Shown piece by piece: positions 27,242 to 30,112 of a stretch of DNA of 64,000 bases. A model generated the notes under the pieces. It saw only the letters and a program-made list of their open reading frames with translations, was not told where the DNA came from and did not search any database. The first letter of the stretch is position 1; the number at the start of each line of letters is the position of its first letter. A program made the translations under genes and the position numbers. Origin of the DNA: an uncultured Rickettsiales bacterium. GTDB lineage: Bacteria > Pseudomonadota > Alphaproteobacteria > Rickettsiales > CANDYO01. The stretch lies in assembly GCA_964356785.1 (NCBI GenBank), contig CAYHIS010000002.1, positions 108,306-172,305 on the forward strand, read 5' to 3'.

Positions 27242-30010
27242 TTGAACGAGTCTGCACATCATCAAGATCTTATGCCAGTTAGTATTGAAGACGAAATGAA
27301 GAGGTCTTATTTAGATTACGCAATGAGCGTAATTGTAAGTAGGGCTATTCCAGATGTATGCGATGGTTTAAAGCCGGTTCATCGTAGAATTTTATACGCA
27401 ATGAATGAATCTGGCTGTTATTATAACAAGCCTTATCGTAAATCAGCTAGAATCGTTGGTGAAGTGATGGGTAAATACCATCCGCATGGTGATTCTGCTA
27501 TATATGATTCCTTGGTCAGAATGGCTCAAGATTTTTCTTTAAGAGATCCATTAATTGATGGGCAGGGTAACTTTGGATCAGTGGATGGAGATTCTCCAGC
27601 TGCAATGCGTTATACGGAATCAAGGCTTGCTAAGCTTGCTCATACACTTTTGGATGATATAGATAAAGACACAGTAGCATTTAAAGAAAATTATGATGGT
27701 TCTGAACGGGAGCCAGTGGTTCTGCCTGCAAGATTTCCGAATCTTTTAGTTAACGGAGCTGGTGGAATAGCCGTTGGTATGGCAACTAACGTTCCTACTC
27801 ATAACCTTGGTGAAGTATTAGATGCTTGTTGTGCATTTGTGGATAATCATGAAATTACAGTAAATGAATTAATGGAAATTGTTACTGCGCCAGATTTTCC
27901 AACTGGTGGTGTAATTCTAGGGCAGGCTGGAGTAAAATCTGCTTTTCTAACGGGTAGAGGATCAATAATAATTAGAGGTAAGGTCCATATTGAAGACTTG
28001 AGTGATAAAAAGCAGGCCATTATTATTGATGAATTGCCTTATCAAGTGAATAAAGCAAAGCTTGTAGAAAGAATCGCAGAGCTTGTAAAAGAGAAAAAAA
28101 TTGAAGGTATAAGTGATTTAAGAGATGAATCAGATCGCCATGGTACAAGAGTTGTAGTTGAGCTTAAAAAAGATGCTTATACGGATGTTATTTTAAATCA
28201 ATTATATAATTATACACCGCTGCAAACATTCTTTGGTGTGAATATGTTGGCTTTAGATCGCGGCCAGCCTAAATTAATGAATTTGTTAGATGTAATTCGT
28301 GCTTTTGTTAATTTCCGTGAAGAAGTTGTAACTAAGCGTACTATCTTTATGTTAAATAAAGCTAAAGATAAAGCCCATCTTTTAATAGGTTTATCAATAG
28401 CTGTAAAAAACATCGATGAAGTAATTTCTCTTATTAGATCTTCTCCTGATCCTGACACCGCAAAGCAAAGATTGTTGGAGCGTGACTGGAAGGCTTCAGA
28501 GGTTCAAAGTTTAATTGAAATAGTGGGCGATACTAGAAATGAAGTTAAAAATGGAAGATGTTATTTTACAGAGCCTCAAGCCAAAGCCATCTTAGAGATG
28601 CGTTTGCAGCGCTTAACAGGGCTTGAGTATGAAAAAATTACTTCTGAACTTTCTGCTCTTGGTATTGAAATAGCTGATTATGTAGATATTTTAAGTTCAC
28701 GTGTTAGATTGCTTGGGATTTTAAAAGATGAATTTATAAAATTAAAAGAAGAATTTGCAACTCCTAGAAAAACATCTATTGAGCAAAGTGAGTTTGAGCA
28801 AGATATTGAAGATCTTATTCCTAAAGAAGATATGGTGGTTACTGTAACAACTGGTGGTTATATAAAACGTACTGCTTTATCTACTTATCGTGCTCAAAGA
28901 AGGGGTGGAAAAGGAAAATCAGGAATCACTGTTAGAGATGAAGATTTGATAGTGAAGATTTTTACGGCAAATACGCATGATAATGTTTTGTTTTTTTCAA
29001 CAACTGGAAAAGTATATAAGCTAAAAGTATATAAACTTCCGCTTAGCAATGCTCAAAGTAAAGGGCGTTCATTAATGAATATATTCCCATTGCAAGAGCA
29101 TGAGAAAATTAATGAAGTAATGACATTACCTGGAAATGAAGATGATTGGAAAGATTTAAATATAGTCTTTGCAACTGATAAAGGTAGTATTCGCCGTAAT
29201 AGTCTAGATGATTTTAAAACAGTTCAGTCAAATGGGAAAATTGCAATGAAATTACAAAATGATGATAAAATCATCGGTGTGAATCTTTGCTATCCAGATG
29301 ATCATATTTTACTTGCAGCTAGAAATGGAAGATGCGTTCGTTTCCCTGTTGAGGCTCTTCGTGTGTTCAAGAGTAGGGATTCTGATGGCGTTCGTGGCAT
29401 GAGATTAAGTGAAGATGATAGATTAATTTCTATGTCTATACTAAGCGGGGCCAGATCTTCAGTTGAAGATAGAGATAGTTTCTTAAAAATACCTGTAGAG
29501 CAAAGAGTTGAATTAAAACATATTGATGATACAAATGAAGCGCAAGCCATAATTGGTGCGGAAAATTATGAAATAGGTATAGATAAAATTCTATCTATGG
29601 CTAAAGATGAGGAATTTATATTAAGCATCACTGAGAATGGTTTTGCAAAACGCTCTTCTGCTTATGAATATAGAGTTACAGACAGGGGTGGAAGTGGAGT
29701 TGTGAATATAGTCACTTCTGAGAGAAATGGTAACGTTATAGGCAGTATGCCTATTGATCCTGAAGATCATTTATTAATGATTACTAATAAGGGAATGGTG
29801 ATACGTTGTCCTGTAAAAGATATCAGGATTTCAGGAAGAGCAACTCAGGGAGTTGTAGTATTTAAAACAGCTGCAAATGAAGTAGTAGTTTCTGTTGAAA
29901 AAATTCCAGGTGAAGAGGAGTCATCAGAAGAGGAAAATACTGGATCCTTCGGCTATGCTCAGGATGACGGCTTTCGTCATGTTGAACGAAGTGAAACATC
30001 CAGTGAGTAA
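27242..30010 (+). CDS. gyrA: DNA gyrase subunit A (C-terminal 23 codons supplied by a repeat element)
   Basis: [13 protein letters not shown] and AMRYTESRL (catalytic Tyr) motifs. TTG start. The acidic tail EEESSEEEN is followed by the element-encoded [23 protein letters not shown]. Confidence 0.95.
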
Positions 30011-30112
30011 TACCGGATCCTTCGTTTTACTTAGGATGACGGTATAACTCGTCATGTTGAGGCTTTATCCGAAACATCCAGGAGAGTATACCTTCATTTC
30101 ATTCAGGATAAC
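29942..30112. repeat. Palindromic element family A: two tandem copies plus one degenerate half
   Basis: Copies at 29942-30003 and 30015-30082 share GGATCCTTCG...GATGACG-N5-8-CGTCATGTTGA...GAAACATCCAG. The outer arms and the inner ATGACG/CGTCAT arms are inverted repeats. A degenerate 5' half lies at 30091-30112. Confidence 0.75.

Follow-up and report, generated by a model that had tools for sequence, protein, structure and literature searches.

A cluster of CGTC-type palindromic repeat units at the 3' end of gyrA in an uncultured, non-Rickettsia member of the Rickettsiales

The gyrA gene of an uncultured Rickettsiales bacterium ends in a run of short palindromic repeats that continues past its stop codon up to the start of the next gene. 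The gene lies in a 64,000-nt stretch of DNA (the window; GenBank assembly GCA_964356785.1, contig CAYHIS010000002.1, positions 108,306 to 172,305), and coordinates below are positions in that window unless a contig is named. The explanation that we favor, with a probability of roughly 0.85, is that the run is a cluster of five CGTC-tagged repetitive extragenic palindromic (REP) units, resembling a bacterial interspersed mosaic element (BIME), which sits on the 3' end of gyrA and extends GyrA by 23 residues. CGTC-tagged REPs, with the families CGTC-1 to CGTC-4, were described by Di Nocera, De Gregorio and Rocco (2013, BMC Genomics 14:522; PMC3733652).

The repeat cluster at the gyrA 3' end

The gyrA open reading frame (ORF) encodes 922 residues and matches TIGR01063 (gyrA) with 1161.9 bits over residues 11 to 888; the NCBIfam GyrA models stop at residue 887-888. 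The conserved end of the protein (...SVEKIP) is followed by a 10-residue native acidic tail and then by 23 repeat-derived residues (900-922, encoded by 29939-30007). There is no in-frame stop between the acidic tail and the TAA at 30008-30010, and by its sequence gyrA translation therefore cannot end earlier. The added residues come from an imperfect 64-nt palindrome, CTGGATCCTTCG...CAGGATGACG-GCTTT-CGTCATGTTGA...CGAAACATCCAG (29940-30003). A second palindrome, CCGGATCC...ATCCAG (30013-30081), begins 2-4 nt past the gyrA stop, and a degenerate remnant (30091-30112) leads up to the ATG (30116) of a gene for a major facilitator superfamily (MFS) transporter. An earlier note on this DNA had described the read-through with its gain of 23 residues, the second copy, the degenerate half before the MFS gene and a set of inverted arms, and all of this is borne out, the outer arms GGATCCTTCG / CGAAACATCC and the inner arms ATGACG / CGTCAT being present at the locus. 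The same note treated the first palindrome as one 62-nt element; judged by the covariation described below, it is instead a head-to-head dimer of two REP-type units of ~30 nt each. With units typed by the variable dinucleotides of their stem (for example, CC/GG), the locus reads as follows.

27242-30010, + strand: gyrA ORF, 922 aa
29940-29969, - strand: REP unit 1, CC/GG type; the minus strand reads CGTCATCCTGAGCATAGCCGAAGGATCCAG; translated in gyrA as GSFGYAQDD
29970-29974, no strand assigned: head-to-head spacer GCTTT, the loop separating GACG from CGTC
29975-30003, + strand: REP unit 2, GT/AC type, CGTCATGTTGAACGAAGTGAAACATCCAG; translated in gyrA as RHVERSETS
30004-30012, + strand: tail-to-tail spacer TGAGTAATA, source of the current gyrA stop TAA
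30013-30041, - strand: REP unit 3, CC/GG type, 2 mismatches to the unit pattern; tail CCGG in place of CCAG
30050-30081, + strand: REP unit 4, GT/AC type, CGTCATGTTGAGGCTTTATCCGAAACATCCAG
30091-30112, - strand: degenerate, 5'-truncated fifth unit CCTTCATTTCATTCAGGATaAC; 19 nt identical to an intact unit at C5:42228 of the assembly
30116-31330, + strand: MFS transporter ORF, 404 aa, directly downstream of the repeat cluster

The five units alternate in orientation (- + - + -), and both units within gyrA (units 1 and 2) fit the unit pattern with 0 mismatches. Because the two dimers are unlike in all three variable segments, they are no recent tandem duplicate. The stem of the fifth unit yields the tetranucleotide AGGA (30105-30108) 7 nt ahead of the MFS start codon, a likely, putative Shine-Dalgarno sequence (ribosome-binding site) for that gene. 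No terminator-like site with a T-run was found on the + strand between gyrA and the MFS ORF, and Rfam gave nothing at the gathering threshold at the locus, an E-value search returning sub-threshold noise only.

Unit anatomy, dimers and conserved structure

The assembly that contains the window (G000) is 1.40 Mb long with 32% G+C. In an initial blastn/nhmmer scan, the two gyrA palindromes used as queries match ~100 places in the whole assembly. A pattern search that allows at most 2 mismatches identifies 119 units, compared with one in a shuffled genome, and the exact unit pattern matches 87 times, compared with 0 for the reversed control; 97 distinct sequences are found among the 119 units. 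The frequency of the repeat thus exceeds chance by a wide margin.

Each unit is a 28-32-nt hairpin composed of a CGTC head, AT-xy-TGA, an inner mini-hairpin (5-14 nt in the unit pattern), GAA-x'y'-AT and a CCAG tail. The stem consists of 5 bp (AT-xy-T / A-x'y'-AT), followed by an invariant tandem G.A/A.G internal loop (TGA...GAA): between the outer and inner stems the two bases are invariably G-A on both the 5' and the 3' side, which can form the tandem pair on the CGTC strand and correspond to an unpairable T.C/C.T on the opposite strand. The variable dinucleotides xy and x'y' are complementary in 102 of the 119 units (permuted partners: mean 36.5, maximum 53) and fall into seven pair types, the commonest being CC/GG (53), GT/AC (29), TC/GA (12) and AC/GT (5). 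The inner segment, which is 7-10 nt long in 113 units and 5-12 nt overall, usually has a 2-3-bp stem with a 3-4-nt loop (GAA, AAA, TTTA, GATA), often of the NN-GAA-N'N' type (such as GCGAAGC, ACGAAGT or GTGAAAC), and its outer two bases at each end pair in 91 units, for a permuted mean of 19. A T precedes CGTC in 64% of units and a G follows ATCCA in 83%, while the flanks outside T-CGTC and CCAG-G show no conservation.

The 119 units form 53 clusters, among them 16 singletons, 20 pairs and arrays of up to seven, mostly in alternating orientation. Tail-to-tail (TT) dimers number 38, with a spacer typically of ~13 nt; there are 22 head-to-head (HH) dimers (spacer 5-8 nt in 18 and 26-34 nt in 4) and 6 head-to-tail (HT) dimers (spacer mostly 15-17 nt), and dimers are 60-75 nt long. 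Homodimers are absent from the tight HH dimers (0 of 18, with ~4.9 expected by chance; P = 0.003), the HH partner of a CC/GG unit nearly always being a GT/AC, TC/GA, AC/GT or AT/AT unit. Identical units are 12 times commoner within clusters than between clusters (6.1% vs 0.5%), indicating that local duplication contributes to the growth of arrays.

Two structures were tested by covariation on an alignment of the 18 tight HH dimers, with 500 shuffles. The first has four helices, namely a closing CTGG/CCAG stem, the two unit stems and a central GACG/CGTC stem; 96.4% of its cells are paired, six pairs show compensatory change, and there are 36 doubly changed cells, values reached by none of the 500 shuffles. 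The second, a single long hairpin, has 82.3% of cells paired, no compensatory changes and no doubly changed cells, lies under every shuffle on all measures, and fails at two positions, in 16 and in all 18 of the sequences. The long hairpin is accordingly rejected as the conserved structure: folding energy is in its favor and covariation is against it. The conserved feature is the unit hairpin, and the dimers appear to be built so as to break a perfect long palindrome; the instability of long perfect palindromes is the rationale given for heterodimers in the CGTC class (PMC3733652). A cloverleaf or tRNA-like reading of the four-helix shape was also tried and rejected, there being no tRNA or Rfam match there.

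A rare tandem array is found at G000 C4:102530-102648, where three identical CC/GG units are repeated head to tail every 45 nt, with one GT/AC unit alongside. Immediately upstream of this array is a 1545-residue ORF, which has an in-frame unit of its own.

Placement in the genome, in proteins and among relatives

Against a rough map of ORFs 90 aa or longer, which take up ~91% of the genome, 86 of the units fall in intergenic DNA, 29 within ORFs and 4 at ORF edges, an intergenic excess with p ~1e-63. The 38 intergenic clusters occupy 26 tandem, 10 convergent and 2 divergent spacers, for a background of 580, 123 and 157, respectively, such that divergent spacers are depleted (2/38 vs 18%, p = 0.02) and convergent ones are enriched (10/38 vs 14%, p = 0.04). 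The distance from cluster to upstream stop is normally between a few nucleotides and a few tens, with a median of ~25 nt; the gyrA cluster is the extreme, at -70, and as such an outlier it looks like the ordinary position just past a stop moved onto the gene end. The first unit of a cluster is in sense orientation relative to the upstream gene in 18 cases and antisense in 8, a weak bias. The window contains a second cluster (50514-50674, no strand assigned) with four units (+ - - +), two of them degenerate, 156 nt beyond a tRNA gene (50285-50358). Elsewhere in the genome, a 10-kb region (L115, equal to G000 C3:1-10500) holds five repeat clusters, with nearly every intergenic gap occupied; it encodes proteins like those of gene transfer agents and phage tails (DUF2460, Phage_BR0599 / phiJL001 Gp84), a phage lysozyme, a Fic/DUF4172 protein and an OmpA-like barrel.

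Besides GyrA, in-frame units are present in MurD, MnmE, a YgfZ-like protein, TrmFO, TruB, MurE, MutL, HscA and transketolase (identified with NCBIfam), in Mfd (identified by eye) and in the 1545-residue ORF mentioned above. The behavior that the earlier note likened to that of Rickettsia palindromic elements (RPEs) is thereby upheld, a dispersed palindromic repeat standing in frame in conserved genes as well. A unit read in sense encodes RHVE(R/A)xxETS(R/S), and one read in antisense encodes (T/A)GSFGxAQDD; the motifs GSFGxAQDD and RHVExxETS are shared by at least 10 unrelated proteins. Of the sense frames, +0 (RH...), open in 68 units, is used 13 times, and +1 (VML...), open in 90, just twice (p = 0.0007). 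Avoidance of stop codons alone would not produce so strong a choice of frame, and the bias is in keeping with selection for a hydrophilic peptide that a loop can accommodate, which has also been proposed for RPEs. For annotation, this means that the last 23 residues of GyrA and inserts of 9-41 residues in at least 10 other conserved proteins are repeat-derived, that such inserts break up profile matches (MurD, TrmFO and TruB; for MurD and TrmFO, at the insert or beside it), and that ORFs can be falsely extended by the repeats, which may also give rise to ribosome-binding sites.

The TruB insert (G000 C13:13163-14155, outside the window) occupies residues ~167-194. These residues have no counterpart in five same-genus genomes or in a genome of a different family of the order (G013), and the flanking matches abut there in a single open frame. 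CGTC-1 inserts are listed in TruB of Sphingopyxis alaskensis (residues 169-177) and Erythrobacter litoralis (164-190) in Additional file 3 of PMC3733652, and the same paper notes RPE-1 in TruB of R. conorii. Insertion into the same TruB loop thus seems to have occurred separately in several alphaproteobacteria.

The closest GyrA sequences (81-83% identity) come from uncultured Rickettsiales metagenome-assembled genomes, followed by a group at 65%. The earlier note had the gene content as unlike that of Rickettsia; judging by its nearest GyrA relatives, the genome is a metagenome-assembled one from within the order Rickettsiales. The GyrA tails of the relatives are acidic, extend 14-45 residues past the EKI motif, vary and cannot be aligned with one another, and in 13 relatives the repeat peptide (TGSFGY...) was found in none of the tails, indicating that the 23-residue tail is lineage-specific. 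In a relative at 82% identity, a different palindromic element of ~115 nt (L002:4231-4355) starts 7 nt past the gyrA stop, with outer arms CGTCATCCCTGGCAAG / CTCGTCAGGGAT, inner arms CGCGACCGGGGATCT / AGATCCCCGATCTCG, and a perfect 11-bp hairpin followed by a T-run. Within the genus, the gyrA 3' flank therefore bears CGTC-type repeats in at least two species.

We surveyed 401 genomes of the order and 400 other genomes of the class for the exact unit pattern, which is abundant in only two of these ~800 sampled genomes: that of the window and G013, with 98 matches. Apart from these two, six genomes of the order and two others of the class have 1-3 copies, and each of five same-genus genomes has 0. 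A looser pattern, CGTCAT-N14-30-ATCCAG, occurs 72 times in one congener (G003) and 21 times in another (G004), and is at control level in the remaining three (G001, G002, G005). The copies in G003 and G004 are a sister subtype, CGTCAT(CC/TC)TTG...CGAG(GG/GA)ATCCAG, with longer inner hairpins. Congeners thus differ in subtype and copy number, and the subtype of the window recurs in a distant family, which could reflect rapid turnover, horizontal transfer, or both. Phage carriage was considered as a route of transfer and dismissed, 2.9 million viral contigs containing 16 single matches, about the number due to chance on a rough estimate from 18 specified bases.

Class, origin and alternative explanations

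Judged by their anatomy, the repeats are a new family or subfamily of the known CGTC-tagged REP class. The class is defined by a CGTC (or TGTC/CCTC) head, an 8-9-bp stem with complementary A and T at the first two positions, a 4-5-nt loop and a CCA tail (PMC3733652). The head is shared, all 119 units having been found with CGTCAT at no more than one mismatch, as are the unpaired CCA(G) tail and a stem of nine positions that starts and ends in AT, although two of the nine are here the invariant G.A/A.G rather than Watson-Crick pairs. The loop is 5 nt here only if the inner closing pair is left uncounted, and an apical 2-4-bp mini-hairpin of many sequences is a feature of the family of the window. 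CGTC repeats occur mainly as HH dimers, with HT dimers negligible, clusters rare, and heterodimers dominant in CGTC-2 and CGTC-3 (PMC3733652); dimers and the dominance of heterodimers recur here, whereas alternating arrays of up to seven units are common in this genome. The class has an alphaproteobacterial bias that includes Rickettsia and Wolbachia, lies near 3' ends and rarely between divergent genes, and has a catalog of in-frame intragenic copies, of which a little over 10% are C-terminal; no flanking or dedicated transposase was found for it, and the question of the enzyme was left open (PMC3733652). The repeats described here likewise lie for the most part between genes and close to 3' ends, a minority being in frame (C-termini included), and have no flanking transposase, and the RH... 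reading frame (CGT CAT) also appears in the list of that paper (RHPGGGRD, RHSELVSGS). In-frame insertion is, then, behavior already described for the CGTC class, of which the window provides a new example; with it, an uncultured Rickettsiales bacterium outside the genus Rickettsia joins the organisms known to have short palindromic repeats inside housekeeping proteins, and the phenomenon belongs to the general class of CGTC-type REPs and is not peculiar to the genus Rickettsia.

Some RPEs belong to the same class: in R. conorii, CGTC-1 is RPE-6 and CGTC-4 is RPE-4 (PMC3733652). The pentanucleotide ATGAC is a signature of RPE-4, -6 and -7 and is nearly absent from RPE-1 to RPE-3, at 0.1 per kb (R. 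japonica genome paper, PMC3767692). With RPE-4, -6 and -7 the window's family has in common the order of its hosts, the core (G)ATGAC / GTCAT (here GGATGACG / CGTCAT) and in-frame insertion into housekeeping genes, TruB, DnaE, Mur ligases and transporters recurring as hosts. The stem sequences, as judged by the peptides that they encode, differ: RPE-6 encodes VIPAKAGIQ / SFPRKRES / DSRFRGND and RPE-4 encodes VIPWLDHGI, whereas the window's family encodes RHVERSETS / GSFGYAQDD.

RPE-1 to RPE-3, the classical protein-coding Rickettsia palindromes attributed to Ogata et al. (2000, 2002), are said to be single elements of 100-150 bp encoding a conserved peptide of 30-50 residues. In-frame, stop-free insertion in one preferred frame with a hydrophilic product is common to them and to the repeats of the window, which differ in sequence and in size (units of 28-32 nt and dimers of 62-72 nt, encoding 9-23 residues). 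The suggestion in the earlier note of an independent or distantly related family consequently holds in one respect, that this is no classical 100-150-bp RPE, and fails in the other, since the anatomy is that of the CGTC-tagged REP class. GTAG-tagged REPs, BIMEs and REPINs of E. coli and Pseudomonas are associated with REP-associated tyrosine (RAYT, Y1) transposases, a REPIN or REPtron having the GTAG tag and a cognate RAYT gene with the repeats on its flanks. Short hairpin units, inverted dimers and mosaics, a location downstream of genes, and covarying stems are shared with these; the tag is CGTC here rather than GTAG, and the genome of the window lacks a RAYT (Y1) gene, the Y1 transposase family PF01797 having 0 matches in it while controls match.

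Several points weigh against our reading. TT dimers exceed HH and HT dimers here and are rare in the CGTC families (PMC3733652), a difference that we attribute to the alternating arrays and that is one of organization, not of structure. Nearest-neighbor energies favor a long imperfect hairpin for each of the two gyrA dimers (RNA, -26.4 kcal/mol with z = -3.8 and -21.6 kcal/mol with z = -2.3), and isolated units fold weakly by the same measure, so that in vivo either fold may be adopted, RNA folding speaking for the long hairpin in each gyrA dimer and covariation for the unit hairpins. Lastly, the ancestral gyrA stop and the exact boundaries of the insertion are beyond reconstruction, because the tails of the relatives cannot be aligned and because neither gyrA neighbor gene lies within 1.5 kb of gyrA in nine relatives, which prevents the ancestral 3' end from being rebuilt by synteny.

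If the locus is a CGTC-tagged REP cluster, the first HH dimer would have arrived on, or replaced, the original end of gyrA. Its stop-free frame (GSFGxAQDD followed by RHVExxETS) would then have supplied 23 extra codons, up to the TAA in the spacer before the next dimer; with no stop between the acidic tail and the dimer, translation has to run on through them. The added peptide is hydrophilic, net negative and placed on an already variable acidic tail, and is therefore probably harmless; most likely it is tolerated rather than useful, and we infer from the sequence that the tail is translated and neutral. Clusters would grow in part by local duplication, which can explain arrays but not dispersal, and spread between sites would require a trans-acting factor that has so far escaped identification or has since been lost. 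The covariation and heterodimer data bear on how CGTC repeats persist and spread without a known transposase. One candidate for this factor, speculative and in our judgment unlikely, is a structure-specific, non-Y1 protein that would recognize the hairpin of the CGTC strand and maintain or mobilize the subtype, the family having moved horizontally within the order. The G.A loop on one strand, the freely covarying stems, the lack of homodimers among the 18 tight HH dimers, and the abundance of the subtype in two distant genomes, with a sister subtype in two congeners, all point to such a protein. Were it to exist, comparing this genome with G013 and with repeat-free congeners could reveal the missing enzyme of CGTC repeats.

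Among the alternatives, the one that we take most seriously, while still doubting it, is that the units are working regulatory elements (3'-end stabilizers, attenuators or protein-binding sites, acting as RNA or single-stranded DNA), with the gyrA copy a side effect, a possibility that is compatible with a CGTC-tagged REP cluster. In its favor are the placement of clusters just past stops, the enrichment of convergent and depletion of divergent spacers, and a G.A/A.G loop that pairs on one strand only. The combination of conserved single-stranded CGTC, tandem GA and CCAG with freely covarying stems is the pattern expected of a recognized structure, and the same argument has been made for REPs generally (PMC3733652). 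The locus, however, has neither a + strand T-run terminator nor an Rfam match, the orientation bias is weak, and in three of the five same-genus genomes even the general CGTC pattern does not rise above control level, making an essential role implausible. Far less probable is a miniature inverted-repeat transposable element (MITE), moved by the transposase of an insertion sequence (IS) through terminal inverted repeats with target-site duplication. In support, the repeats are palindromic, dispersed and, as dimers, 60-75 nt long, and in G013, which has the same subtype, ~150 nt separate a unit from an IS200-type TnpA gene. A MITE is a fixed element whose terminal inverted repeats, 15-30 bp long, match an IS, and such an origin requires a full-length IS with ends matching CTGGATCC... 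or consistent target-site duplications; what is found instead are singletons, HH, TT and HT dimers and arrays of up to seven, with no fixed repeat-core-repeat element, and flanks that are unconserved with no duplication visible. Neither the Y1 search of the genome nor inspection of the repeat-dense C3:1-10500 revealed a transposase, and the IS200 of G013 has its own hairpins and a unit on one side only, directly past the sucA stop. The same gene was pursued as a REPtron lead and abandoned, being an ordinary IS200-type TnpA with a lone unit in the usual place. Scarcely credible, finally, is that GyrA ancestrally encoded the 23-residue tail, or that the junction is an assembly artifact, the resemblance to the repeats being secondary. 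The GyrA tails of all relatives do vary in length, and 23 additional residues are in themselves unremarkable among them; yet both units encoding this one match the unit pattern without mismatch, its peptide motifs recur in unrelated proteins, the relatives do not have the peptide, and three more units continue past the stop.

Two further loci are worth recording. In G013, the IS200-type TnpA gene (L091:2491-3087, equal to C1:442490-443086) is inserted ~60 nt past the single CGTC unit behind the sucA stop, which may be coincidence or may mark a REP neighborhood as a landing site. In the window, downstream of the MFS gene, there is a 1245-residue ORF (31389-35126) whose long N-terminal part is of low complexity, with many Ser, Thr and Asn residues, and whose C-terminal part passes through the membrane several times; its product presumably resembles VirB6-like type IV secretion proteins of Rickettsiales.

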